A stretch of DNA of 61,929 nucleotides, counting the filler. It is 8 parts of 8 records of this genome, joined end to end, with 100 filler letters (N's around TTAATTAATTAA, not from the genome) between each part and the next. Parts side by side here need not be neighbours in the genome. Positions count along the whole stretch, not along the records: positions 22,234 to 26,012 come from SRR7504441_6204; 7 more parts are not named here. One strand, 5' to 3'. This document shows positions 9,949 to 32,400 of this stretch, one piece after another; position 1 is the first letter of the stretch; each line of letters begins with the position of its first letter. Made by a program: the position numbers and the translations under genes. The notes below the pieces were generated by a model. The model saw only the letters and a list, made by a program, of their open reading frames with translations, ran no database searches and had not been told where the DNA came from.

Positions 9949-10552
9949 TCATCTCCACGAGCCACAGCTAGGCACCATAGCCGCCAGTGGTATACAGCGC
10001 ATCCTCTGCCCCCGCAGATCAGCCTCGCGGGCGGCCCGGGCCCACCGTGCACTCGCTGGTACTTCTCCAAGTCTAGGCGAGCCACCGTCAGCTGCCCGCC
10101 GATCGGCCGGGCCGGGGCGGGGGGCGGGCACCATCTGCATGAGCACCTCGTTCCGGTACTTTAGCATATTGTTCTCCGAGCTCAGCTTTGTCACCCGCTG
10201 GTGAAGCTCCCTGTTCTCCTCCTCCACAGTCAGCGTCCGCCCGGCCATCGACGTAGTCTCTGCCAGCGGCCTGACCGGGGCCGGGGCCGGGGAGGGGCAC
10301 CCTCCACCCATCGTCCATTCACAAACCGCACCCGCACCATCCCGAGGTCCAGCGAGACCGGATCGTGCTTCATCGGCTCCTGCCCGGCCGCTCTCTCCCC
10401 GTCCCCTGGCCGCGGGTTCGCACCCGGCGCTGGGCGTGGGTCTGAGCGTGCTGCTCGATCCGGGCCTGGAGCGAGTCGACTGCCGACTGGCGGAGCGAGT
10501 CAGGCTGCGCCGCGTCCAGCCCGACCGCCGGCCCTGGGTTGAGCCCGGACAT
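9949..10552 (-). CDS. Chibby-like coiled-coil protein, multi-exon (3' end uncertain)
   Basis: Spliced model gives PVSLDLGMVRVRFVNGRWVE then ENNMLKYRNEVLMQMLT, matching the Chibby pattern L-x-F-x-x-G-x-W and ENNLLxLKxDILLDML. Confidence 0.6.
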
Positions 10553-10686
10553 CTCTGCTGCGCACCTGGGTTTGGGCGTTTGAGTTTTGTTGCTATTTCC
10601 GACATTGGGTTGGCAGGCCGTTGGGTTTGCCGGTGCAAGGATTCCGTTGCTGCGATCAGTTGGCGAGCGAGCGCGCCAAACTCTCC

Positions 10687-13476
10687 ATGGTGTCCACCGA
10701 GCTACGCGAGGCTCTCGTCCACAACGGCGACGACTCCGGTTCACTCGAAGATCGCCCGCCGTCCCGGGCTGCGACCTGCCGGCGTGCCGGCTGGAAATGG
10801 GCGGCCGGGGCGTCCGGGTTGGTGGCTTGCGGGCTGCTGGTGGCGGTGGTGATCGTGGCCAACAACCAGGACAGCCCGAGCCCGAGTCCGTCATCGGGCC
10901 ACTTCAGCGGCCAGATGCTCATGCCGGAACCCGGGGTCGTGGATGCTGTAGTCCCTCCACCCGCTGGACGCGCTTCGGGGTCGGAGGCCAAGACTGGGTA
11001 CACGCAAGCCCCGCAGGTAGATCCGAAGACAAAGGGCTGGGCGGGCACAGATCTGACTAAGTCGGCGGTGATCAGAGCAATGATCTTCCCGCCCGGCTTT
11101 GATACAGAACGCATGGAGAAGATATTTGACGATATCACCGACCCGACGAGCTCCAAATGGCTGCAGTTTCTCAGTAAAAAGCAGATCCAGGACCAACTTC
11201 CAGAAACAGGGCGATGCCTAGACGACCTGTGGGCCTGGCTCGAGAGCAACTTTGCGGATATCGACATCGATAAGAAAAAGCATACGCTGCACATTGAGGT
11301 CACCGCCGCGACCGAGGCGATTGGGAAAGTCTTCGGCATCAACTTTCAAAATTTCAGTCACCCCCAACATCCGGATTCTATTGTCAGGACAACTGACACG
11401 ATCAGATTGCCTCCCGAAATCGAGTCTTGCGTTGATCACATACTCGGTCTTCAGGAGCTGCCTCAAATTTCCCACAGTACGAGCGGCGGATCACAAGCAC
11501 CACCACCTGCATCCCAGTCTACAGAAAAGCGAAGGAGCCCACCGTCGCGAGGCACCAGGAGAGTGTCGTCGGCTAGCAATCTGGCACCAAGGATGTGTTA
11601 TGATATACATGGTCATCACACGCACAACTGCACTATGAGCCAGACCTGTGGAAGTACATTACAGGGCGAAGACGCCTGCTGTCCAGTTGGCTTGACCCTG
11701 ATTGGAGGAACATGCATGAACTCAGCTGACGACGTAGACAGAACCAGCATCTTGAATGGAGATTTCATCCGCTCATATTATAACTTGGCCTCTGGTGCTC
11801 GTGTACCTGCAGAAAACAACTACGGGCTGGGCCAGGGAACTCTGGAGAACTCAAATGACTACACCCCGGAGGCACTGCGTGCGTATCTCGATGTGGTTGG
11901 ACTGCCAGACGCTGATGTTAAGCTGCAAGGCAGTTGGAACCACAAGGTCAACTCAGAGGCCAACCTTGACATACAATGCCTCCTTTCTACTGGAGCTGGC
12001 GCTAAAACGTATTTCATGAATCCGTTCGTGTTCAGCCCGGATGTTCCTTCGCTGCATAACGCCATTATTGGCGCGTATGACTGGTTAGAAGATCCACTGC
12101 AACTTCAAGTCATTGCCACCAGCTACACTGTGCACGAGAACATCGCCCATCCCAGTGCCACCGGCTACGCTGTGAACACCGCCCATCCCAAACATGAAGA
12201 GTTCGCAAACCGTGCGCTGCTCCTCATGGCACTGCGGGGCGTCGGGTTCTTCTCAGCTTCTGGAGATTCTGGTGCTAGCTCGGGTGCTGGGAACAATCCT
12301 ATCGACCTTGCAAGAACTGCAGAATGTGGTGGAGGTAAGAATTGTGCCATATCAACAAAATTCCTTCAGAATAATCAATGCGTCTCTTTCACGTTTTCCA
12401 TTCGAAACACATCAAACCTACAATCCTCTGCTGCCTGCAGCTATCCACAACTTCTAGACCGGCTAAACGATTGCTTGGACAACATGCTCCTTCCTTTCAA
12501 CGCCTCTTACAAGAGATCTCAGGAAGTCTCCTCCCTCGTGAATGATTATTTGAAATTCAACAATGGATGTACTGTTGAAGCGATCAACAATGGCGATCAG
12601 CAATACATGGGCTCCAATTGCAGCTGTGGTGCTCTTTATGATGTCAAAATACCGAATAAATATGAAATGCATGGCCACACCTATGACATGTACATTACTC
12701 CAGGTTACCAACAGACCCAATTCAAGAATTGGTTCGGGCAGAGTTCCGCAGCAACTTCCTTCGATCCGTTTTTTCCTTCAACAAGCCCTTATGTTACTGC
12801 AGTCGGGGGTACGCAGTTGACCTCTGCAAGAGACAATGGCTGCCGTTTCGGCGCTTGGGACAACTTCCCAACAAGATGCACCTCTGGAGAACGTGCAGTT
12901 AGTTATAACTCTCAAGGCGGTGTCACCTCTGGTGGTGGCTTTTCCACCATGTTTCGCCGTCCACGTTACCAGGAGACAGCAGTGAAGGGGTATCTTGACG
13001 GTAAGTCACTTGGCTTCTTACCACCACCTGAACTTTTCAACCACAGTAATCGTGGATTCCCAGATGTCTCGTTGTTCGGTGGTGGTGCCCTTTTCAACGT
13101 GGATAGCTCAATTCAACCAGCACTTGGATCAGGGACGTCATATGCTTCTCCCTGGTTCGCAGGCTTGATGACTCAGCTCAATTTTGAGCTTTCGTTGCGG
13201 TTTAACCGCACAGTGCATTTGGGCGCGCTTAACCCACTGCTGTATCATTTTGGTCGAAACAGCCCACAAGTGTACAATGATGTTGTCTTAGGCGATAATG
13301 CATGCACAGAAAGCTATTGCAGCACCTTTGGTTACCGGGCAACATCTGGTTGGGATCCTGTCACCGGGTTCGGATCAATCGACTTTCCGAAGTTCCGCGA
13401 TCAAGTGATCAATCTATTGGAGTGGCACCAATCTCAAGGGTCGAGCATCTTCAATTCCGAATACAGTAGCATTTGA
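10687..13476 (+). CDS. S53 sedolisin / tripeptidyl-peptidase I-like protease with N-terminal TM anchor and prodomain
   Basis: Pro-domain (DITDPTSSKWLQFLS), catalytic SEANLD, ASGDSG, GTSYASP, PSTSPYVTAVGGT, RGFPDVS, Ca site GWDPVTGFGS; intronless. Confidence 0.9.
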   Translation: MVSTELREALVHNGDDSGSLEDRPPSRAATCRRAGWKWAAGASGLVACGLLVAVVIVANNQDSPSPSPSSGHFSGQMLMPEPGVVDAVVPPPAGRASGSEAKTGYTQAPQVDPKTKGWAGTDLTKSAVIRAMIFPPGFDTERMEKIFDDITDPTSSKWLQFLSKKQIQDQLPETGRCLDDLWAWLESNFADIDIDKKKHTLHIEVTAATEAIGKVFGINFQNFSHPQHPDSIVRTTDTIRLPPEIESCVDHILGLQELPQISHSTSGGSQAPPPASQSTEKRRSPPSRGTRRVSSASNLAPRMCYDIHGHHTHNCTMSQTCGSTLQGEDACCPVGLTLIGGTCMNSADDVDRTSILNGDFIRSYYNLASGARVPAENNYGLGQGTLENSNDYTPEALRAYLDVVGLPDADVKLQGSWNHKVNSEANLDIQCLLSTGAGAKTYFMNPFVFSPDVPSLHNAIIGAYDWLEDPLQLQVIATSYTVHENIAHPSATGYAVNTAHPKHEEFANRALLLMALRGVGFFSASGDSGASSGAGNNPIDLARTAECGGGKNCAISTKFLQNNQCVSFTFSIRNTSNLQSSAACSYPQLLDRLNDCLDNMLLPFNASYKRSQEVSSLVNDYLKFNNGCTVEAINNGDQQYMGSNCSCGALYDVKIPNKYEMHGHTYDMYITPGYQQTQFKNWFGQSSAATSFDPFFPSTSPYVTAVGGTQLTSARDNGCRFGAWDNFPTRCTSGERAVSYNSQGGVTSGGGFSTMFRRPRYQETAVKGYLDGKSLGFLPPPELFNHSNRGFPDVSLFGGGALFNVDSSIQPALGSGTSYASPWFAGLMTQLNFELSLRFNRTVHLGALNPLLYHFGRNSPQVYNDVVLGDNACTESYCSTFGYRATSGWDPVTGFGSIDFPKFRDQVINLLEWHQSQGSSIFNSEYSSI

Positions 13477-13957: not shown

Positions 13958-16900
13958 TCAAGAACAAACGCCGTGAAATTCATACTGACCACCGCCGATG
14001 CGAACTAGGACAAGCCCCAGTTGCATGCCTGCGATGCCAGCGCTCTGAAGTGTCGCATCTCTTATGCCTAGACGAGGACGGAAGGTGCCGTTGTGCCACA
14101 CGGCAATACCACGCTCGTAAATGGTATTCGTGCGACACGAGAAGAGCACAGCCGCCTCTGTGTTCGGCGGAGTGCTCACATTTAGAGCTAAGCGCAAGCT
14201 GGCTGCATCGTACTTCCAAGATACAGCAATCAAGCCCCGCGGCGAGTACCAGTGGCCACTCGCGGCAGGCAGGTCGGTGTGGTTGACTATGCGGGGCGCA
14301 ATGACAGGGCGAGAGAAGGCGGTTCCGTCGCCTTGATTCAGCCCAACCAGATCAGACTGCAGCCACTGCCCGATGCTCCCGAGAAAGTGATGGTTGTGTG
14401 AAGGACCTGCGCCCTGTTCTCGGGGGCTGCTCCCCACCCCAGCACGCCGCACGGGGAAAGTTTGATTGCCTGACCAGTTCTCCCAAAGGGTCGTGGCCCC
14501 TTGGTTGACCTGGTAACCATACGACGGGCAGCTCGTCTGTATCGCCATTTCCAGTGCTAGGTCGGCCCTCCCGAGGCCTGACAGTGCTGGCCACACGTAC
14601 TTGGTCCCGACAAGGCCGGTAGTCACGTGCTGCCCAGCCTCCGCAAGCTTCTGCAGCAGCGTTTGCTCCACATCTTGCCGATGTTCAGGCGGCACTGGCA
14701 CCCCTGCACGGCCCAGCATCGCCGCTTGCTCTGCTTGCCCCCCAGGCTGCCCCGGTGTGGCGTACCTGAAGCGGCCAGCCTTCTCATCCTGGGTCAAGTA
14801 GACCTGATGGAATGATTCCCACAACTTCGTGGCCATCGCGCCGTATTTGCTGGCATCGTCGAGTTTACCGAGCAGCTGCGCCATCTGCGAGAGCAGGCCG
14901 ACATCCACGATATAGTGATAACTCGATAAAATAGGGCCTGATTCTGACTCCTCGCTGCTGATGGGCTGATACTCCATCCAGTCCCCATTCATGTAGTACC
15001 AAGGCAGCTCTGGATGTCCCGGAGCGTGTGTCATGTCGCTGGTGGGCGGCCTGCATGCCGAGCACCGCCTAGGAGTGGGCAAATAATCAACAAACCGCTT
15101 CATCGAGTCATAGCGCGCCCGAATCAAGCCAGCATCCCCAGAGTACTTGTACACCAGCATGGCGATTTGCAGGTAGCTTGTGGGCCAAGTGAGGTCGACC
15201 GGCGGCGTGTGCTTGGCAAAGGGGATAGTTGAAGAGAGCGCGCCGTGGTCGCTCCCTCCAGGACAGCCAGGTTTGCCAGGGCACTGGGCATCTTCGTAGT
15301 CCTGCAGCCATTTGGCGTAAAAACTGGTCATGTCCAAGTTTCTCACGGCCGTCTCAGCCGTCGCTTGAGAGTCACCTGTCCTCCCCCGTCGCGCCGGGTG
15401 CACAATCAAATTAAGACTTGCCTGTCCAGCCGACACGCTCCCTAGTAGGGCAATCTGACTCAACGGAGTGCATGTTGCTCAGCAGCGACCGCACAATGTT
15501 CTCGTTGATCTGATTCAAAATAGCAGCCGGGCCGGTGTCCGGGAACTTCAATTCGGCTATCCGCCTGTTGTCTGAATGAACCACAGTCGCTATGATCGAG
15601 CTGAGAGTCGGCGGGGCACCCTCGCTCGGCCACCCAGTGAGTTCCACAAACTGAAAGCCGTGGTAACTGAACACAGCACCGTAGCTCTCTCGCCCCCCCC
15701 GGAGGGTGTAGGTATCCACAGCACCTCCCCACGCATAAAAGGCAGACCCAGTGTCGCAACCCACAAGACAGACCGTGCCGTTAGGGAGCCGCATTTGTTC
15801 GGCGTGCGCGAGCTGTAGAACAGTGCCGGCCGGCAGTTGCACGTCATTGAGCTCCGCCCAGCCCACATTGTTGTCCGCAAACCAGAAGACGTACGAGTCG
15901 TTTGATGGCTTGGTGATCTTGATTGGGTATCTGGTGCCTGTTCGGCGGATGGGAGTGAACACATGTGGTCTCATCTGTCCGAACAAGGACGACGCATTGC
16001 GGACAGCCACTGTCGGCCCCCAGCCGCTTGCATTGAATCCAGGCCGAGAGAACCCGTCTGTCAACTTCCGAGCGTCAAAGCTGACTCCTTTGAATACATC
16101 ATCCGACACGAATGGGGACACAGCCGACTGCCACGTGTGAGGCTGGCTCGAGGCGAGAGTGAACACAGTCCCGTTGTCCAGTGTAACCCTACCCACCCCG
16201 CTGGCCCCGCAGCCCACCGGCCGGCCACCTCAGCAGCAGCCGCAGTCCGAGTGCTGGGACACACCCCGGTCGGTTGCACCAGGCGCGAGTCCAGCTGGAG
16301 TTATATTGGCCGTTGCCCAGCCACACCCCTATCGCATTCCTGCCCGTCGCCACAAGACCAGTCACGTCCTTGCACCTGTACAGAATCCGTTGCGACCAAG
16401 TTGTCCACGGTCCAAGCGCCTCGTCCGGTCCGACTTCGGCGCCGTTCAGCCAAAGCTTGCCATAGCCAATACCGACCCAGAACAGCGTGGCGTGCGCTAT
16501 CTTGCCGGCTGCACTCGAAGGGACATCGAACTCGGAGCGGAGCTGTGTCCGGTCTGCGCCGTTGATCCACTCGGCACCCAAGCTGTCCCAATCCGCCGGA
16601 TCGAGCGCGGTGCCAAAGTCGCTCCAGTCAGACGGCTGCAGCTCGTCACTGTCGCTCCCCTGAACCAGCACCCGCCAGCTGTATCGGCCGTCACTGGCCA
16701 GCCGGGCTTTGCCAGCGTAACGGACGAACAGCGTGGCGTTGCTGGCCACAAGCCCGCTGTCCCAGATCCCGGTGCCGTTGGCCTCCCGGAGTTGCAGCCG
16801 GTACGCCGCCTGGACGAGTCCCCGCTGCCCGGCGGTGGCCGTGAGCTGCCAGCTGAACCGAAGCTCAGCCCGGCTGTCCACGAAGCTCAGCCGCTGGTCC

Positions 16901-19901: not shown

Positions 19902-19981
19902 CCTGTCTCTAAGGCATCTTCTATCTATTACAACTATTGTGATACTAAGCGTTAACAACGGAGCTACATCTAAACATACAG

Positions 19982-20245
19982 CTACACCTTGAGATCGCCG
20001 TCCGATCGGCGGACTGGCGCCTTGGACTTCCAGGGCTTGTAGTACCCGCAGTACTTGCACCCGCCAGTACCGGAGCGCGGCTTGCCGCACGCCTCGCATT
20101 CCTCCACCGCGGCCTGAGCCGCCCGGCGCTCCTCCTCCAGCTTCTCCTGCTCGGCGAGTCGCTTGGCGTGAAGCTCCAGCCGGGCCTGCTCCTTCCGGGC
20201 GCGCTCCTCCGCCAGCTCCTTCTCGGCAACCGTCTGGCCGCTCAT
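19982..20245 (-). CDS. Small coiled-coil + CxxC..CxxC zinc-ribbon protein (87 aa)
   Basis: MSGQTVAEKELAEERARKE...CEACGKPRSGTGGCKYCG; GC3-rich codons. Confidence 0.6.
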   Translation of the reverse strand: MSGQTVAEKELAEERARKEQARLELHAKRLAEQEKLEEERRAAQAAVEECEACGKPRSGTGGCKYCGYYKPWKSKAPVRRSDGDLKV

Positions 20246-20323
20246 CCCGCCCGGCTCTCCGCAGAGGATGCGCTCTGTCGGCTGGCAGGCTGCCTCCCCC
20301 AAAGTAACGGAAGGTGGGTCGGG

Positions 20324-21559
20324 ATGTTCCCGGTGCCTCGAGGGCCGAGGACCCGGGGCTGGGTTCGAGGCGGCCGGACCGGACCAGCTTGCCGCGGCTC
20401 CCCGCCGTCCTCTTCGCTCTGGTGGCTGCTGCTGTGCGCGGGGGCTGCGGCGGGGTGCGAGGTTCGGCCGGGTGAACCTATCCAGCCGGCGCTCGACCAG
20501 CTGGCCCGATCCGGGGGCGGGCTGTGTCAGCTGCTGCCCGGTGTCCACCCCGTGACAGCACCGATCGCTGTCCCCGCCAACACCGGGCTGCACGGGGCGG
20601 GCTCTGCCAACACAGTGCTCCGCTCGCGGATGGCCGACCCGGCCAGCATCGGCCGGCTGTGCAGCTGGTCAGGGGGGAACTGCGCCGTGATCACTGTCAA
20701 CAACCACTCGCGCGAGAACATCACTCTGGCCCAGTTCGCGATCGACGGCGGACTGACGCCCGCGCTGCGGCAGTGGGCTGGCGGCCATTGCGGCGGGTTT
20801 GGGATCGGGGTGTCGGACTGCCCGCCTTGCGAGCAGGTGGGCTACCCCGAGTGCAAATGGAACAACTTCGGGATACTTCTATGGGACTACCATGCGGGCG
20901 GCCCGGTGCGCAACGTGCTGATCGATAGCGTGCGGGTAGAGAACGCTTCGATGGGCTTGCATGTGCTGGGCGGCCAGAACGTGACAGTGCTGAACAGTGC
21001 GTTTGCGTGGAATGGAAATGGGAACGCGTTTTTCCACAACGCTTACTTCTTGAGGATGCAGCGCACCAGGCTGGTCGGGTGTGACTTCACAGACTCATCG
21101 GGGCATGGGCTCAAGATCACCGCCCAGAACGACACGCTGGTCCGAGACTGCTACATTGCGCGGAACAGCTGGCAGGGGATCTGGGTGGGGGGCGAGCAGG
21201 GCCAGCCAGCTAATTATGGGCTCACAATAGATAACTGCACAGTGGAGGCGAACGGCAAGAACGGGATTCAGCTGGGCGGGACTAACGGATTCGCTGTCCG
21301 CCGGTCTGTTGTGAGGTACCACGCAACGGTTCAGATGGCCGGGCTTGCGATCGACGGATCGACCGATGGAGTGGTGGAAGGCGGGCTGGTGAATGGCAAC
21401 GCAATCAACATTCTAGCTGAGAATGTGCGGAACGTGACGGTGTCGGGGGTGGGTTGCGATGTGGCCCTGTACGGCCAACCGACCTGTGTGGCCAAGACAA
21501 AGGGGTTCGGTATTGTGAATAGCAGCTGCAGGGCCATACAGGCGGCCAGTTGCGGATGA
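20324..21559 (+). CDS. Secreted right-handed parallel beta-helix (pectin-lyase-like) protein
   Basis: Hydrophobic leader; IQPALD..., LHGAGSANTVL, NITLAQFAIDG and repeated N-x-T-[VI]-x-N/D-[CS] coils. Confidence 0.75.
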   Translation: MFPVPRGPRTRGWVRGGRTGPACRGSPPSSSLWWLLLCAGAAAGCEVRPGEPIQPALDQLARSGGGLCQLLPGVHPVTAPIAVPANTGLHGAGSANTVLRSRMADPASIGRLCSWSGGNCAVITVNNHSRENITLAQFAIDGGLTPALRQWAGGHCGGFGIGVSDCPPCEQVGYPECKWNNFGILLWDYHAGGPVRNVLIDSVRVENASMGLHVLGGQNVTVLNSAFAWNGNGNAFFHNAYFLRMQRTRLVGCDFTDSSGHGLKITAQNDTLVRDCYIARNSWQGIWVGGEQGQPANYGLTIDNCTVEANGKNGIQLGGTNGFAVRRSVVRYHATVQMAGLAIDGSTDGVVEGGLVNGNAINILAENVRNVTVSGVGCDVALYGQPTCVAKTKGFGIVNSSCRAIQAASCG

Positions 21560-22133: not shown

Positions 22134-22233
22134 NNNNNNNNNNNNNNNNNNNNNNNNNNNNNNNNNNNNNNNNNNNNTTAATTAATTAANNNNNNNNNNN
22201 NNNNNNNNNNNNNNNNNNNNNNNNNNNNNNNNN
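22134..22233. other. Artificial contig linker
   Basis: 44 N + TTAATTAATTAA (six-frame stops) + 44 N. Confidence 0.99.
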
Positions 22234-22297
22234 TCAGGCGCCCTCCGAGAACTGCCAAGGCTGAAAAATACAGTAAATCTGAGTTCTGGAGAAAGCT

Positions 22298-25200
22298 ATG
22301 GACGGGCGGGTCTGGTTGCTCCTCGTGGCGGGGACGGCGGCCCAGTACGCGCTGCTCGGGGATGGCGGGAGCCAGTCGCTCGGTTCGGCCGCGGGGGTGC
22401 GCTGGAGCGTGACCAACGGCAGCCTCACCGTGCCGGCATCGGTGCCCGGGGCGGTCCACTTGGATCTTGAGCAAGCCGGTGTGATCAACGACACGTACTA
22501 CAGGCTCAACCAGCAGGCCAACAGCTGGGTGCGGCAGAGCTCGTGGCGATACGAGACCTCTTTCGAGCTGAGCCCCGACCTCGCCTCGGCCGCCAGGCTG
22601 TGGCTGGTCATGGACGGGTTGGACACGCTCGCTACAGTCCTCTGGGACCACCCGCCGCCCGCGGCCGAACCCACGCAGTGCTTCGAGCTGTTTGCCCGGA
22701 CCTTGCCCGTCCCGCGTACACCGTTCGCCCGGACACTCACAGCCGACCTCGCACAGTGCTCCTGGGCCTGCGTCGCCGACCCAGAATGCACCGGGTTTTC
22801 GACAGCGCACCAGGGCCAGCCAGGCGTGTGCTGGCTCTACCACTACCCTGCCGGGGCTCACACTAGCAACGGCACCGGGTTCAACGACGGTGACTGGCAC
22901 GCTCGGGTCTCGGGCCGAGCTGGGTGCGAGGCACTGCCTCTGCTTGAGGCCGGCGATCAGTTTCAGCGGTACGCGGTGCCGGTGTCGGGAGGCGCTGGCC
23001 GGCACAATCTGACGGTGCAGTTTCAGTCCGTTGACGGGCTGAGCACGGGAGGTGCCAAGTGGGCGCCGGTGAGGAAGGAGCCTTCGAATTATGGGTACGA
23101 CTGGGCTCCTGTCACAGAGACTCAAGGGATCTGGTAATTTGCTTATTATTAATGTGAAGGCGTTAAGTTAGTCAGTTGCCTGAATAGGAAGGTGTGAGCT
23201 ATGTCATTGCCTGATTAGGAAGGTGCAGGTTGCCGGTGTATTTAGTGGCTCAACGGGAGCTGGTGATGCTGGATATGATGGTCACAGTGCTTAGCCAGCC
23301 GACCGACCCTCCCGCCATGCTCCAGCCCGACACGGCCGAGTGGAGCGTCACGGTGCGGTGCAGGTGATTTCCTCACTAGGATTGCGTTAAGCTATGCTAT
23401 TGCCTGATTAGGGAGGTGCAGGGTGAATCTGGTGAATCCGGGCTCTGTGCGCTTTGAGGTCCATGGCAACTGGTCGCTCAGCCCCGTCGGCAAGCTCCTG
23501 GCGCTCCCTGCAGGCGTCTCGGAGATATCCCAGCAACTCTCTGTCCGAGACGTCCAGCTGTGGTGGCCGGCCGGCAGCGGGGCTCAGGCCTTGTACACCG
23601 TCACAGCCTCGGCCACCGCCAGCCGGTCCAACACCCCTGTGACAGCGTCCCGATCGGTTGGGTTTCGAACCTTCAACATCCACGCCTCGCCTGGCAACTC
23701 CTCCCACCCGCCGGTACAGGACTATCGTGTTAATGGGCTGACGATCTTCGCAAAAGGTGCTGACTGACTGGGTTCCCGCGAGACAGTTGCCTGATTAGGA
23801 ATGTGTTAAGCTATGCATTTGCCTAATTAAGAAGATGTTAAGCTAGGCAGTTGCCTGATTAGGAAGGTGCTGGTCATCAGGTGCCGACTGGGTCCCGCCT
23901 GACAGTTTTGAGTCGAGGGTATCCGAGACGTCGCTGTGTGGCTTGCTCAGCTCGGTGCGAGAAGCCAACATGAACTTTCTGCGGATCTGGGGCGGCGGAA
24001 TATTCCCACAGGTGATTTTCTCATTGAGAACGTTTTAAGCTATGCATTTGCCTAATAAGAAGGTGCAGGACTCGTTCTTCGAATGCGCCGACAGGCTCGG
24101 TATCATGCTCGAACAAGACCAAATATTCTCGGACAGCATCTACCCCACCGATCCTAAGTTCCTGAGCCGAGTCGCCGCAGAGGTACAGTATCAGGTCCGC
24201 AGGCTGGCCAGCCACCCGTCGCTTTTCCTCTGGTCTGGGTCGAACGAGGAGTACCCTTCCACACCCGGTGGCTGGTGGGATCGCGTGTTCCTGGAGACTG
24301 TCTTCCCAAACCTCACACAGGCGATTTCCTTATTAGGAAGGCGTTAAGCTAGGCCGTTGCCTAATTAGTAAGGCGCAGATCGATAGCTCCCGCCCGGTCT
24401 GGGCAGCATGCCCGGCCTTGCCATGGGTCACTGGAGTCGACAGCGGTGGTCTGCCCAACGGAGACCCTTTCACAGTGTCGGCACAAGCCCGACAGCACTA
24501 CCCTACGCCACCTGCCGAGGCGCATCAATAGTGCGCATGGCTGCTGACTGAGTTGAGTGAGCTGTGCTTGTGCAGTTGGTTTGATATGTGCGCCGAGCTC
24601 TCAGCGTGCAAGGTGATTCCCTTATCAGGCAGGTGTTAAGCTAGACAGTTGCCTGATGCCGTTGCCTGAGCTCAGCGTGCCAGAATTGCGTCGACGATAG
24701 CTTCTACGCCACCACTGTTTTCGCCTCAGAGTTTGGGTGGGTCGGCATGCCCAGCCTCGAGTCCCTGGCTCCCGTACTCGGCACCCCAGAGCAGGACTAC
24801 TCACTGCTCTCACCGGCCATGCAGGTGATACCTGATTAGGAAGGTGTTAAGCTATGTCATTGCCTGATTAGGAAGTTTCAGGCTCGCGAGAACACGATTT
24901 TCCACCAGCAGAAGCTGTTCAACATGGTTCTGTGGAACTTTGGCCCACTTGCGATCCCTCATCTCAACCAGAGCACCGTCGACAGCTTCAGACGGGTTAT
25001 ACACATGTCAATGGTCGCCCAGGCTGACTGCCTCAGGGCCGAGTCAGAACACTACCGTCGGGGCCGTGACACAGCCGCTAGGACGGCGGGCTCGTTGTAC
25101 TGGATGCTGGACGACAACTGGCCCGCGCCTTCATGGACCTCTCTAGAATATGGAGGCCGGCGCAAGCTGCTGCACTATGAAGCTAAGAGGTTCTACAGCC

Positions 25201-25886
25201 CGGTGGCCATGAATTCTTATTGCATGCCTTCGATTCAGAACTGCTCCGCGGTCAAAATCCATGTCGGCTCTGATCTGATAAAGCCCATCTCAGCCCGACT
25301 GACTGTCAGACTCACCCAGTGGTCTGACGCCAAATCGAGCGTGGCTTTGACAAGTGATCTGAAGCTAGCGTCACAAGGTGGGGCCAGCGTCCTCGTGAGC
25401 GCTGCCTCGCTGCAGGCTGGCCTCAAGGCTGCCGGCTGTGACTCAACTGCCGAGTGTTTCCTGACCAGCGCCTTAGCGCAGCCGAGCTCCAACCAGCCGC
25501 TGGCCCCTGACAACTACCAGTGGTGAGCTCGCTAGCTGCTAGCGGCCTAACACCCTGCACCCAGGCTTACCTTGTGGCGCGATGCCCGGCTGGCGGAGGC
25601 CACTTTTAGGATCGAAGCAAGTCCCGGCGAGGAGCCGGGCAGCGTGGTGGTGAGAATCACATCGGACCGGGTGGCGCCGTTGGTGATGGTCCACTGCTCC
25701 GAGCCAACTGACTTTGGTTGGTTTGATGACAACGGATTGCTTATGCTACCGAATGTCTCACAAACAATCCTCTACACACCGCGACCAGGCCCGTATCTGC
25801 CTTTCCGACCGTGCACTGCCGATCCAAGCAGCTTTTATGCGGTCTCGGCTTCAGGGTACACAATTGGCACCAACTCAAAGCGCTAG
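22298..25886 (+). CDS. Secreted GH2 beta-mannosidase with inserted PAN/apple-like module; 10 exons
   Basis: VPGAVHLDL, DGLDTLATV, RKEPSNYGYDWAP, KGADWVPPDSF, NMNFLRIWGGG, HPSLFLWSGSNE (acid/base), FASEFG (nucleophile), GSLYWMLDDNWPAPSWTSLEY. Introns 23134-23228, 23364-23421, 23757-23880, 24012-24068, 24321-24378, 24531-24575, 24613-24683, 24825-24881, 25523-25564 restore one frame. Confidence 0.92.
23134..23228 (+). mobile_element. Introner-like repeated intron, copy 1 (extra repeat unit)
   Basis: GT...GCGTTAAG...TTGCCTGAATAGGAAGG...TTGCCTGATTAGGAAGGTGCAG. Confidence 0.7.
23364..23421 (+). mobile_element. Introner-like repeated intron, copy 2
   Basis: GTGATTTCCTCACTAGGATTGCGTTAAGCTATGCTATTGCCTGATTAGGGAGGTGCAG. 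Confidence 0.75.
23757..23880 (+). mobile_element. Introner-like repeated intron, copy 3 (exon duplicate + 3 repeat cores)
   Basis: 5' part copies the downstream exon; then three TTGCCT(G/A)ATTA(G/A)GAA cores. Confidence 0.7.
24012..24068 (+). mobile_element. Introner-like repeated intron, copy 4
   Basis: GTGATTTTCTCATTGAGAACGTTTTAAGCTATGCATTTGCCTAATAAGAAGGTGCAG. Confidence 0.75.
24321..24378 (+). mobile_element. Introner-like repeated intron, copy 5 (GC donor)
   Basis: GCGATTTCCTTATTAGGAAGGCGTTAAGCTAGGCCGTTGCCTAATTAGTAAGGCGCAG. Confidence 0.75.
24613..24683 (+). mobile_element. Introner-like repeated intron, copy 6 (3' end replaced by upstream-exon duplicate)
   Basis: GTGATTCCCTTATCAGGCAGGTGTTAAGCTAGACAGTTGCCTGA...GAGCTCAGCGTGCCAG. 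Confidence 0.7.
24825..24881 (+). mobile_element. Introner-like repeated intron, copy 7
   Basis: GTGATACCTGATTAGGAAGGTGTTAAGCTATGTCATTGCCTGATTAGGAAGTTTCAG. Confidence 0.75.
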
Positions 25887-26012
25887 CGTCAAGCGATGGT
25901 GCCAGGGTGATGCCGCGAGCGCCTGCGAAAGCTGAACTTTTTTATATACGATGATGCTTTAACACTCTACAGTAACATACACACAGTTCGGACAGGTTTC
26001 GGACAGGGTTGC

Positions 26013-26112
26013 NNNNNNNNNNNNNNNNNNNNNNNNNNNNNNNNNNNNNNNNNNNNTTAATTAATTAANNNNNNNNNNNNNNNNNNNNNNNNNNNNNNNN
26101 NNNNNNNNNNNN
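26013..26112. other. Artificial contig linker
   Basis: 44 N + TTAATTAATTAA + 44 N. Confidence 0.99.
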
Positions 26113-29397: not shown

Positions 29398-29497
29398 NNN
29401 NNNNNNNNNNNNNNNNNNNNNNNNNNNNNNNNNNNNNNNNNTTAATTAATTAANNNNNNNNNNNNNNNNNNNNNNNNNNNNNNNNNNNNNNNNNNNN
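29398..29497. other. Artificial contig linker
   Basis: 44 N + TTAATTAATTAA + 44 N. Confidence 0.99.
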
Positions 29498-32400
29498 CCC
29501 GTGCCAGTGCGCGTTGCCAAAGTATATTGCTTCCATTGTGCCACATCCATCATCCTTGTCGTCGGTCTCCGAATTGCCGTAGTCAAAGCAGCAAAGACCA
29601 TTGTAGTGCTTCCCGCTCATCACCGCGTAAATGGACTCCGGGTCATTGCCAGTCGGGACTCCTCTAGTCTTGTCGACGTGATAACCAAAGCCTGGATCGA
29701 ACCACATGCCATATACCGGTACACCGTCTCCAACAATGATCTGGTGCTTGGAGGCGTTGACTAGCCTGTGCCCGTTGCGCTTTCCAAGGTGATTCTTCAT
29801 TGGCGATTGGTCAAAGACATGAGAGATTAGACAGTCGCCCCGGGAGCAGAACTCGTCATGCTCCGAGATATTGGCAAACCCGCCAGGGCTGAGCACGCCA
29901 ACTGTGGTCCACGTGCCATCGCCTCGCGTCACGTTGTACAGAGGTCCGTCGTACGCAGCATAAAGTGCACGCACTGTCGAATGAGCAGCAACACATGGGT
30001 TTCCCGCCCTGCCTGTAATGTCACAGGGACCGTCGAGATCTGTAGCTAACCCCCACCAGTTGCTGGTGTCGCCACCGAATGCTGGATCTTTGGGCCATGC
30101 TACCGGTTGGACGACTAGTTGAGATCCAGGATCGTGGCCTGTCCGATGCACTACGACAGTGGCACCAAGCCCCAGAACCCCCAGTTCCCACCAGCCCGAT
30201 CCTAGCTTGGGCGCCGGTTTAATCGGGACAGATGATACTGGGTTGACTATGTCAGTCCACAGAAAAACACTCTGATTCACTTCCGATGGCGCAACAATCG
30301 CGAGCCAGTCTGTGCGATGCGATGTGCGGACTGCTGACACTTTGAATCCACCCTCCGCCACCAGCGAGGCGAACGAGGCATTGCTCCAGCCTGATGGCAT
30401 TGACGGAAAGACTCGGATCGCTGAGAAGGGTCGATCCGGCGCCGAGCGTTGCCAAGACTGGAGCATCATGAACTGGATCGCAAAAGCAGCCCCCAATGGG
30501 GACTCGTTGCAAGGCGCATGCGATGCCTCCCAATACTGCGTGCTCAAGCCGAGATTAAACCAGTTCCCGTTAGCGGCGCTCTTGAACCAGTTCGACAAGT
30601 TTCCGTAGGCTGCGTCAGCTCGACCTGGCAACATGGCTGACATGGCCGAGAACGCCACTCGCGGGAAGCCGTTGGAGATCAGCGGCTCGGGGCGTGCCGC
30701 CCCATTCATCTCGGCGAAGTGGTCCAGGCTCTGAATGGCTAGAGGGTCTGTTGGATCCAGGTTCATCAGAGGAAAGATCGAGAACAAATGAGACCAGTGA
30801 CGATGCCCATGTGCCAATTGAACGCCGTGGCCAATCAATAGTCCGGTGGCATTGTCTGTGGGGTATGGTGCGAGCTTGTCCAGTACATGCTGCCAGCGTG
30901 GGTCCTCTTGGAGGCCCGAAACTGACGCCAAAGAGCGAGAGATTAACTGCAAAGTCCGCAGGCCCCACGTCAGTAGTCCCAAGTCGTAATTGGTGTCTGT
31001 GGCAGTGGCGTACTCAGGCGACTCCGCCTCGGGCAGGTGAAGCTTCCCGTCGGCGCCAACTGTCAAAAGGCGGAGATAGTAGCCAATGGATCGCTTCAAC
31101 GTCGGAACCAGCACTGTTCGCAGCAGCGTGTTTGCCTCCGTGGCGTTGGTCTCGTATCGATATTGCCACCACAGGTTGTGACACACCCAGGCAAGGTCGC
31201 CCAACTGCACGCCCGGTGGCTCCACGGTGCAGTTCTTCAACAGAAATCCGTCGCAAGTGGCCTTCATGTCAAACCCGGTGTTGGCCGCCAAGGCAGCCGA
31301 GTCGTTCTGGTACTGCTCTGGCACAGACGCAATCAGATTTTCCATGTTCCGCCCGACCATCGCCCCGAGCGACCTCCCAAGGTCTGCATGATTTGAGGCG
31401 AGGACCAGCCAGTGGGCCTGCACGCACAGTCAATCAACCTGTAGCAGGAAGGCTTGGTCTTCTAGAGTATTCAACTAGCCCTAACTCGCCATCGGTACAT
31501 TAAGGCACCAGAGCACTAGACGCACCATCTGTACATTAAGGTCCCAGTGGTAGTCAGGCCAGCGCGAGCTCGCCACGTACCAAGGCCCTGCTAGATCGTA
31601 AGCCCAGCAGTTCTCCGGACCGTCGCATCGAGTGGCGGAGCCCACTTTGTAGAGCTGAATGTAATGGAATGCCTCGAAAACCCCGTCGCTCACAGAGAGC
31701 ATCGACCGGCCCCAAAACCTCTCCCAATAAGAACAGTGCTCGGCACCCAGTGCCTGGTCTCCGAGAGCGAGACCCGCACTCAGCTGTGCCTCAGCCAGCT
31801 GGCTCGACGTTGAGTTGCCCGACCGGCCCGCCGGAGCAGCATTCGCCACAGTGAGCAACACTGTACGCCCGCCGCCCCGGCCCTGCCACGCCGTGCTCCA
31901 GCCTGTCTTAGGCCCGGCCGGGAGCGACTGAATGCAAAGCCCAGAGACCTCGGAGTCAGTGGACTTAGCCGGTGTGCAGGACGGGTCAGGGTTGGGGACC
32001 CAGTTCTTGGGCGGCGTCTCTCCGCGGGCCGAGGCTGCCTTGTGCGGCACGAAGCTCAGATTGGCGGCGCACGGGCTGCCGGCGGACAATCCTCCGTCGA
32101 GGTTGAGCGCCACCAATGGCCGCGTGGCGTGGACGTATGCAGCGACTTGGCACTGGGATCCGTCTGTCAGCTCAAAGGTCATCGAGACAGTGGCGTTGGC
32201 CAGGTGGATTCTGCTCCGGCCGGCCGCGATGGCCGACCCGAAACTCAGCGTGAGCGTACCGACCCCGAGCCTGGGCTCATCCAAGTAGCTCTTGTCCACG
32301 TTAAGCCGGCTCCCGGGCAGTCGGACGTCCCACACGTCGGCCCGCCCGACCTCGAGGCTGGCCCGGCTGCCAGTCAGGCCATACAGGTAGATACCGAGCA

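Follow-up and report, generated by a model that had tools for sequence, protein, structure and literature searches.

Seven of the nine introns in a GH2 beta-mannosidase gene of an uncultured marine heterotrophic protist are built from one 32-nt unit, consisting of a 19-nt core and a 13-nt spacer. We consider it probable that they form a family of introner-like elements that creates minimal introns. The DNA analysed (hereafter the window; 61,929 nt, linkers included) consists of eight separate contigs with N44-TTAATTAATTAA-N44 linkers between them; the gene's own contig accounts for only 3779 bp of it (22234-26012). The named sequences closest to the host are a transcript from Telonema and a single-cell genome from Picozoa. 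The protein atlas resolved the host only to Eukaryota, a representative search with a WD40 protein was dominated by repeat proteins, and cluster look-ups for ten best hits without names yielded no organism.

The mannosidase gene (CDS 22298-25886, + strand, exon GC 0.62) has ten exons and nine introns. Excision of all nine leaves a single open frame that runs from the ATG at 22298 to the stop codon at 25884-25886 and encodes 993 aa. Pfam analysis of the exons identified Glyco_hydro_2_N2, PAN_4, Glyco_hydro_2, Glyco_hydro_2_C and Ig_mannosidase, with a PAN-like insert lying within the N-terminal domain. The open frame and these domains support the statement in a preliminary description of this DNA that removal of the introns restores the GH2 motifs, and every one of the seven element-intron coordinates given there was exact. 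The features are as follows.

22298..25886, + strand: GH2 beta-mannosidase gene; open frame, Pfam domains, colinearity with seven relatives
23134..23228, + strand: intron 1, 95 nt, phase 2; element with 2.6 units; follows CTG, the sole element intron without a preceding AG
23364..23421, + strand: intron 2, 58 nt, phase 2; canonical element, GTGATTTCC to GGTGCAG
23757..23880, + strand: intron 3, 124 nt, phase 1; 30-nt diverged copy of the downstream exon, 2.6 units, then CTGGTCATCAG
24012..24068, + strand: intron 4, 57 nt, phase 0; canonical element
24321..24378, + strand: intron 5, 58 nt, phase 0; canonical element with GC-AG ends; spliced in RNA
24531..24575, + strand: intron 6, 45 nt; ordinary, GC-rich, not an element; spliced in RNA
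24613..24683, + strand: intron 7, 71 nt, phase 0; canonical 45-nt 5' part, 3' end copies the upstream exon; spliced in RNA
24825..24881, + strand: intron 8, 57 nt, phase 0; canonical element
25523..25564, + strand: intron 9, 42 nt; ordinary, GC-rich
35228-35269, 35654-35698 and 35873-35917, + strand: ordinary introns of an MCM3 gene on another contig (comparison set), 42, 45 and 45 nt

With lengths of 95, 58, 124, 57, 58, 71 and 57 nt, four of the seven element introns measure 57-58 nt, as had been claimed. The contrast drawn earlier between AT-rich element introns and GC-rich ordinary introns of about 40 nt is likewise borne out, since GC content is 0.37-0.55 in the former and 0.58-0.78 in five ordinary introns of 42-45 nt. 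These five were verified by homology or reading frame and comprise introns 6 and 9 together with the three of MCM3, which were located from tblastn gaps against two MCM3 relatives and from the sequence and its GC content. A crude scan of the other contigs for ordinary introns returned 98 overlapping candidates and was too noisy to serve as a denominator, so the comparison was limited to the five verified introns. The ordinary introns verified in this host are uniform in length, at 42-45 nt.

Sequence and build of the element

A canonical copy (57-58 nt) reads, in order, GYGA, a core TTTCCTNATTAGGAAGGYG, the 13-nt spacer TTAAGCTAKGCNN, a second core TTGCCTRATTAGGAAGGTG and CAG, and carries both a 5' splice site and the 3' CAG. 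Longer copies have one additional 32-nt unit, and across the element introns the tandem unit is repeated 1.6 to 2.6 times (TRF gives a period of 32 and 2.6 copies at 23784-23866, in intron 3). The core surrounds the near-palindrome CCTRATTAGG. Within it, 14 nt from the 3' end, lies a branch-site-like CTRAT, at the same spacing as in the ordinary 42-45-nt introns. In two copies the core has the near-perfectly palindromic form CCTAATTAGG, and paired cores fold as a hairpin. Beyond the palindromic cores there are no clear terminal inverted repeats in the element; sub-terminal symmetry is present and the outermost bases mismatch.

The core TTGCCTGATTAGGAAGGTG has ten matches at up to three mismatches, all on the + strand and all within 23176-24878, and 100 shuffles yielded none. 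An nhmmer profile made from six aligned copies gave nine matches with E-values of 8e-19 to 3e-8, all inside 23134-24881, the runner-up elsewhere in the window having an E-value of 0.49. Both searches uphold the original observation that the seven introns share one sequence. Pairwise identity among the copies is 64-80%, and the similarity spans their full length, spacer included, and so extends beyond the splice signals. All seven are in sense orientation. In five of them the element accounts for every base of the intron, from GT or GC to AG.

With the nhmmer profile, no copies were detected in the other seven contigs (58 kb), and nothing related to the element that could be an autonomous partner or a transposase source turned up in the window. 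The claim that no other gene of the window holds a copy stands in this respect, and is weaker than stated because the window joins eight separate contigs, of which the gene's own is just 3779 bp. Such a lack of copies across 58 kb would not be expected of a family that is spreading. Five DNA runs (X1-X5) contain this organism. In the DNA metagenome run X1, four contigs match the element alone and then continue into unrelated GC-rich sequence, representing at least three loci; one of them contains a complete intron-like copy of 71 nt set in new flanks, with AAG/GTG... and ...CAG/G ends. These metagenomic contigs suggest copies at no fewer than three loci in unrelated flanks, possibly those of another organism. 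An exact scan with the 19-mer core gave eight loci in metagenome_contigs, all of which are regarded as chance matches because the spacer and second core are absent. The same scan of genome_contigs gave four loci, none of them related; two belong to a repeat of a single bacterial MAG. An exact 17-mer core scan of viral_contigs gave none.

Insertion sites, flanking duplications and splicing

The sites occupied by the element are not a random sample of the exons. As the preliminary description had it, an exonic AG precedes six of the seven element introns, compared with 5.7% of exon positions (binomial P = 2e-7), and an exonic CAG precedes four of the seven (P = 2e-5). At introns 3 and 7, part of the neighbouring exon is also found inside the intron.

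23757..23786, + strand: intron 3 duplication, intronic copy; supplies the 5' splice site
23881..23907, + strand: intron 3 duplication, exonic copy; start of exon 4, codes GADWVPPDS
24589..24612, + strand: intron 7 duplication, exonic copy; end of exon 7
24663..24683, + strand: intron 7 duplication, intronic copy, about 21 nt; supplies the 3' splice site

The local alignment of the intron 3 flank copy scores 16, and of 2950 control 35-mers taken from its own contig none scored as high; for intron 7 the score is 12, reached by nine of 2950. Both flank copies are anchored exactly at the junctions. These diverged 22-30-nt exon copies are the apparent footprint of a target duplication. At the intron 3 junction, 2 nt (TT) are common to flank and insert. 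The motif AG/GTGC acts as the 5' site where it occurs in the upstream duplicate; in the downstream duplicate it directly follows the 3' site, so that splicing takes out exactly one copy. No locus-specific flank duplication was found at the other five element copies, whose sites have only (C)AG in common; their common CAG may represent a 3-nt duplication, or it may reflect site preference only. Exons flanking different element copies are unrelated to one another, and the repeat families end at the intron ends.

Splicing is documented directly for two of the element introns. In a contig from marine oligo-dT RNA (X6 record 12), position 24320 is joined to 24379, with intron 5 excised at its GC-AG ends, and in a second RNA contig (X6 record 13) 24612 is joined to 24684, with intron 7 excised at GT..AG ends; a further 16 loose letters of the latter correspond to the end of the exon that precedes ordinary intron 6. 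The segments at introns 5 and 7 are therefore not unspliced in RNA, the outcome that had been named as speaking against the earlier interpretation. RNA cover from three runs comprises these two of the seven element introns, with no contigs over introns 1-4 and 8, for which the support for removal is the open frame and the gapless alignment to relatives. Among the reads of one DNA run (depth about 2-6), none was seen that lacked an intron at an exon-exon join.

All seven full-length relatives (48-56% identity) have uninterrupted ORFs across the nine intron positions, although most of these contigs are possibly transcripts, and the alignment to them is colinear with no indel at any of the nine junctions. 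A 21-kb single-cell genomic contig of Picozoa sp. COSAG02 has an ORF that is unbroken over the positions of introns 8 and 9. Conservation of the intron positions in distant orthologs, which the preliminary description had set against a recent gain, is thus not seen in the ORFs of the seven relatives; the comparison is partly informative, as most may be transcripts, and the genomic evidence, from the Picozoa ORF, concerns introns 8 and 9.

Origin of the introns

According to the introner-like interpretation, the element would be a complete minimal intron, and new introns would arise through its insertion into coding DNA, most plausibly at the DNA level. A full element landing after an exonic (C)AG could then be excised exactly by splicing. 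Two insertions, those now seen as introns 3 and 7, would have arrived with one element end missing or altered and may have survived through the 22-30-nt target duplication, which would supply the missing splice site. Splicing of these two introns would remove the insert together with one duplicate and leave the mRNA unchanged. That a single 3.6-kb gene contains seven copies suggests that the element re-inserts locally, close to a copy already in place.

The preliminary description had left the choice between recent intron gain by an element and local copying within the gene. The balance leans to an element, because at least three X1 copies lie in unrelated flanks and because two introns have flank duplications. 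Some local spread within the gene must still be invoked to account for its seven copies, given that the 58 kb of the other contigs have none. The word ‘recent’ should be softened, because copies that are only 64-80% identical are not a fresh burst.

Several other origins were weighed. One is intron transposition, a same-gene copying at the RNA level in which a spliced-out intron reverse-splices into its own transcript at new (C)AG/G sites, the transcript is reverse transcribed and the copy recombines into the gene. The confinement of seven copies to one gene, with zero in 58 kb of other contigs, would follow readily from such a process, as would the exact intron-to-intron boundaries without flank duplication in five of the seven, the strong preference for post-AG sites and the uniform sense orientation; same-gene intron duplicates are, moreover, described in fungi (PMC3609843). 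We nevertheless judge it unlikely. Reverse splicing yields no target duplication, yet introns 3 and 7 contain 22-30-nt exon copies and lack one canonical end, the X1 copies lie in unrelated flanks, and the number of 32-nt units varies among introns, unlike the result of exact intron copying. Flank duplications that are long and present at only two of the seven sites would be accommodated by repair of DNA breaks, in which end joining would take filler from a neighbouring element copy and the filling of staggered ends would leave variable flank duplications. The TT common to flank and insert at intron 3, the varying unit number, the truncation of some elements and the extreme clustering all agree with such repair. 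Its probability is low, and somewhat lower than that of RNA-level copying: five copies have identical precise ends, which are not expected from untargeted repair, and each copy at another locus would need a nearby template. Break repair and element insertion differ in enzyme pathway only, and the data here do not separate them.

It is very improbable that the introns are old and were homogenised later, by gene conversion or by a repeat entering pre-existing introns. Repeats within older introns can mimic introners, as noted for some fungi (PMC3609843), and intron 3 without its repeat array is 41 nt, the size of an ordinary intron. Against this, five introns hold nothing but the element between GT/GC and AG, which does not fit insertion into an older intron, and all seven positions are absent from the relatives' ORFs. 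The non-repeat part of intron 3 copies the next exon (0 of 2950 controls), unlike an old intron. Entry of a repeat into pre-existing introns was rejected specifically, as no older-intron remnants were found and the additional sequence in introns 3 and 7 duplicates the adjoining exons. Segmental duplication within the gene was also rejected, because the flanking exons are mutually dissimilar; they are not duplicated and code for different parts of GH2. The least probable account, and one we find hard to credit, is that selection has kept the shared sequence as a small RNA or protein-binding site in the introns of the host gene. The near-perfect palindromic core and the hairpin formed by paired cores are what would be expected of it, but there is no match to an Rfam family at gathering score anywhere in the window, RNA-fold z-scores are weak (-0.15 to -2.2), and the copies differ by 20-36%, the conserved block being only the core and the splice signals. 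To our knowledge, all known intron-borne snoRNAs are longer than 57 nt.

Comparison with known sources of introns

Introners are reported from Micromonas pusilla (IE1), Chrysochromulina, Florenciella, Aureococcus, Symbiodinium and Polarella (PMC9860276, PMC12130899, bioRxiv 10.1101/2020.10.14.339549, PMC11282704). These algal and dinoflagellate introners resemble the mannosidase introns in several respects: similar introns occur at unrelated positions, the hosts are aquatic and the orientation is always sense. The element carries one or both splice sites, the other coming from the duplicated target, and the mRNA is unchanged; the published examples with coordinates are also short, at 64-115 nt. 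Micromonas IE1 is described as carrying its 5' site and taking its 3' AG from a 3-nt duplication, which matches the ‘element plus CAG target’ arrangement seen here. The differences are equally specific. Here the element body is a 32-nt tandem unit in variable number, whereas the published pipeline removed families with short repetitive motifs (PMC9860276). The flank duplications measure 22-30 nt and occur at two of seven copies, compared with the 3-9 bp given for introners (PMC9860276). The mannosidase element has no clear terminal inverted repeats, and its seven copies lie within one gene, with zero in the other 58 kb.

A second comparison is with the same-gene or low-copy duplicated introns of fungi (Collemare et al., PMC3609843). 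These too occur as several similar introns per gene, have lengths near those of ordinary introns and are without the strong structure of the fungal high-copy elements. Half of the reported fungal cases are segmental, with exons included, whereas the exons here are unrelated, and the fungal copies are near-identical, in contrast to 64-80% here (PMC3609843). Seven in one gene is also many, and copies of the present element occur at other loci in X1.

Creation of introns by duplication of an exonic AGGT segment was reportedly proposed by Rogers in 1989. The AG/GTGC of the intron 3 duplicate, which serves as a 5' site, is reminiscent of this, but a foreign 83-94-nt repeat lies between the intron 3 duplicates, and plain duplication would give a 25-nt ‘intron’ only. 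Li and colleagues are said to have described, in Daphnia in 2009, intron creation by break repair with short flanking repeats. Break repair as a source of introns also receives brief mention in PMC11282704.

The process is already known from other plankton; what is unusual here is the clustering within one gene, the tandem-unit build and the long flank duplications. The element family may already be present in the published catalogues of PMC9860276 and PMC12130899, for which 520 Tara Oceans assemblies were screened. No reports of introners in Telonemia or Picozoa were found in the literature. It is conceivable, if doubtful, that the family is of a mechanistically new type, in which a 32-nt palindrome-cored unit in short tandem arrays re-inserts mainly within a few kb of a copy already present, via staggered breaks of about 25 nt, in an orphan Telonemia/Picozoa lineage of heterotrophic flagellates. 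If so, no introner described so far would have footprints nearly as long.

Of the sources of new introns, introners have the best support, but the families catalogued so far derive mostly from annotated genomes and from pipelines that require near-identical copies and discard repetitive consensus sequences. The element described here is barely longer than the minimal introns of its host, which belongs to a group of poorly sampled marine predators. Two of its copies appear to show how a gene can be rescued after the incomplete arrival of such an element, with a long target duplicate supplying the missing splice site. Should the clustering within the gene prove genuine, the locus could lend itself to studies of short-range re-insertion by intron-making elements.

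Intron structure and splicing of the mannosidase gene

The window consists of eight separate contigs joined by linkers of the form N44-TTAATTAATTAA-N44 (22134-22233, 26013-26112 and five more), and the contig bearing the mannosidase gene is only 3779 bp long (22234-26012). Any statement on ‘other genes of the window’ is hence a comparison between distinct contigs belonging to one bin. The preliminary description treated seven segments of the gene as introns. Their removal, together with two further short segments, leaves one uninterrupted reading frame, 993 aa long, from the ATG at 22298 to the stop at 25884-25886:

23134-23228, + strand, intron 1, repeated element
23364-23421, + strand, intron 2, repeated element
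23757-23880, + strand, intron 3, repeated element
24012-24068, + strand, intron 4, repeated element
24321-24378, + strand, intron 5, repeated element
24531-24575, + strand, intron 6, ordinary, 45 nt
24613-24683, + strand, intron 7, repeated element
24825-24881, + strand, intron 8, repeated element
25523-25564, + strand, intron 9, ordinary, 42 nt

As had been claimed, intron removal restores the GH2 motifs, and the joined exons match Glyco_hydro_2_N2, a PAN-like insert, Glyco_hydro_2, Glyco_hydro_2_C and Ig_mannosidase. The insert is a PAN/Apple-like cysteine module (residues about 139-182; window 22298-23131) inside the N-terminal galactose-binding-like domain, and is common to all seven full-length relatives. 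These relatives (P0122-P0127 and P0130; 921-1282 aa, whole-protein cover, 48-56% identity) were taken from the 15 matches obtained when exon 9 served as query for longer proteins, the other eight, partial or weak, being omitted. Alignment of the model to the seven showed no indel at any of the nine junctions, and all nine intron boundaries are thus exact; the closest indel is a variable loop ending one residue ahead of junction 7.

Splicing was examined by aligning three oligo-dT marine RNA runs and one DNA run to the mannosidase contig. For intron 5 (GC-AG), RNA contig X6 record 12 joins 24317 to 24376, which, given three ambiguous letters, is equivalent to 24320 to 24379. For intron 7, X6 record 13 joins 24612 to 24684 (GT..AG), and the 16 loose letters of this contig before 24576 match the exon end preceding intron 6. 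The expectation that the segments are spliced is accordingly borne out for introns 5 and 7, the two of the seven element introns that RNA contigs cover. Separately, a contig of RNA run X8 (record 15) leaves out 221 nt of exon 1 (22494-22714). This skip has CG..CG ends, a 5-nt CGTAC repeat on both sides and no splice signals, and its length is not a multiple of three; its probable source is template switching, as an artefact, or a deletion variant.

A 32-nt unit shared by seven introns

The sequence shared by the seven introns is a 32-nt unit, composed of a 19-nt core and the spacer TTAAGCTAKGCNN. At up to 3 mismatches the core has 10 matches, all on the + strand and all within the seven element introns; by chance none would be expected. 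Searching the whole window with a profile of six aligned copies gave nine matches (E 8e-19 to 3e-8), all confined to 23134-24881; the next-best match has E 0.49, in agreement with the earlier statement that no other gene carries a copy, a comparison made across separate contigs of a bin. Introns 2, 4, 5 and 8 represent the canonical form, 57-58 nt long, in which GYGA is followed by the first core, the spacer, the second core and CAG. One extra unit is present in intron 1, and in intron 3 TRF finds 2.6 copies at a period of 32. Pairwise, the element copies are 64-80% identical.

The core contains CCTRATTAGG, the A variant of which is a perfect palindrome. Its CTRAT sits 14 nt before the 3′ end, where, read from the sequence, the ordinary introns have CTGAC or CTAAC. 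In intron 5, GGTG is replaced by GGCG at all three homologous places (5′ splice site, unit junction and 3′ end), and the first of these changes makes it a GC-AG intron. The unit-junction C is also found in introns 1 and 2, and conversion between units is a possible source of the other two changes.

Ordinary introns were also located in the MCM3 gene of another contig, as tblastn gaps against two relatives:

35228-35269, + strand, MCM3 intron, 42 nt
35654-35698, + strand, MCM3 intron, 45 nt
35873-35917, + strand, MCM3 intron, 45 nt

The reported contrast between AT-richer repeated introns and GC-rich ordinary introns of about 40 nt holds, with GC of 0.37-0.55 in element introns against 0.58-0.78 in the five ordinary introns of 42-45 nt (exons 0.62). 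All three MCM3 introns are multiples of three with in-frame stops. This uniform 42-45-nt GC-rich style is all that was found to tie the mannosidase contig to the rest.

Further copies occur in the marine DNA run X1, where 4 of 11 aligned contigs fit the mannosidase contig only in part. In X1 record 5 (311 nt), a segment with 4 differences from 23787-23828 lies between unrelated GC-rich flanks of 78 and 191 nt; with the loose ends read in, the record carries a 71-nt intron-like copy with ends AAG/GTG... and ...CAG/G. In a second contig, matches to 23790-23813 and 24829-24875 are separated by 7 other letters and bordered on both sides by new sequence, and two more contain one end each. X1 thus holds at least three further loci whose flanks, read by eye, are unlike any junction of the mannosidase gene, and the host of these copies may differ. 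Exact core scans of three public collections returned chance matches only. Among them is a stretch of ~190 nt that carries the 19-mer and is nearly identical in two contigs from a single bacterial MAG (L009 2081-2269; L012, minus strand around 526-544); it was rejected as a bacterial repeat unrelated to the finding.

Intron sites, flank duplications and probable intron gain

Each intron was aligned to 35 nt of each adjoining exon, and the two positive cases were controlled against every non-overlapping 35-mer of the contig (n = 2950). The first 30 nt of intron 3 duplicate, in diverged form, the opening 27 nt of the exon that follows (score 16; control maximum 11, 0/2950 reaching it), and the last ~21 nt of intron 7 copy the closing 24 nt of the exon before it (score 12, reached by 9/2950 controls). 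Each duplicate is anchored at its junction. The canonical 5′ element end is missing from intron 3, whose 5′ splice site is supplied by the duplicated exon piece, and the canonical 3′ end is missing from intron 7, whose 3′ splice site likewise comes from the duplicate. In either case splicing takes out the insert and one duplicate copy, leaving the mRNA unchanged. The same alignment found no flank match in the other five element introns or the two ordinary ones.

An exonic AG precedes six of the seven element introns, as previously counted (P = 2e-7 against exon composition), and CAG precedes four (P = 2e-5). By the published method, as extracts of PMC9860276 describe it, such a shared AG or CAG is indistinguishable from a short target duplication. 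By manual count in introns 3 and 7, substitutions between intronic and exonic duplicates amount to about 9-11%, and twice this value approximates the 20-36% divergence between element copies; on this rough age check, with small numbers, one period of insertion would be consistent.

Old, inherited introns might be expected to recur at the same positions in orthologs. The ORFs of the seven full-length relatives are uninterrupted over all nine positions, and three have longest contigs of 8.7-14.1 kb, which suggests that their sequences are genomic DNA. Proteins of comparable length were also sought, and the 15 matches plus three cluster members gave 18 fragments for comparison with the model; 9 of them cross the position of intron 8 and 13 that of intron 9. 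One, P0140, is an ORF on a 21-kb contig of a single-cell assembly labelled Picozoa sp. COSAG02 (EukProt), unbroken over model residues 648-984. Since these relatives are distant, the apparent lack of the introns in them fits gain but leaves it undated.

Host and relation to known introners

Genes on the contigs include those for MCM3, a WD40 protein and a protein kinase, together with numerous glycoside hydrolases and peptidases; the sequencing runs containing the sequence are marine. Among named relatives, the closest for MCM3 is a transcript of Telonema subtile (EukProt; 85% over 81% of the query), named NCBI proteins reaching about 51-61% at most, and the closest for the mannosidase is Picozoa sp. 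COSAG02 (60%). From these relatives, the gene content and the marine runs, the host is an uncultured heterotrophic protist of uncertain placement. The other contigs are rich in secreted-type hydrolases, as seen at these loci:

29453-31429, - strand, ORF
13961-15478, - strand, ORF
10543-13473, + strand, ORF
19949-21556, + strand, ORF

One ORF matches arabinofuranosidase B as well as GH95; the others comprise an alpha-L-rhamnosidase, a sedolisin-like peptidase and a beta-helix protein. Such hydrolase-rich contigs fit a predator or degrader of algal material.

Extracts of PMC9860276 give introner target-site duplications (TSDs) of 3-9 bp, with splice sites element-borne or derived from the TSD, and a screen of 520 Tara Oceans assemblies in which the pipeline removed repetitive families. 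Those of PMC12130899 report 1,093 introner families in 201 species, the mechanism of some being unknown, and single Amoebophrya genes with tens of introner introns. TSD classes in dinoflagellates (bioRxiv 10.1101/2020.10.14.339549), a scheme for Micromonas IE1 (PMC11282704) and same-gene, low-copy and high-copy classes of duplicated fungal introns (PMC3609843) are described elsewhere. The strings ‘Telonem’ and ‘Picozoa’ are absent from the main text of PMC9860276 and PMC12130899, whose supplements may already catalogue the family, and a full-text search returning titles and abstract openings found no paper on introners in Telonema or Picozoa.

Taken as a whole, the evidence supports the reading of the seven introns as an introner-like family, that support not extending to the mechanism of spread. 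The features deserving attention are the 32-nt tandem build, the 22-30-nt flank duplications and the presence of seven copies within one gene.
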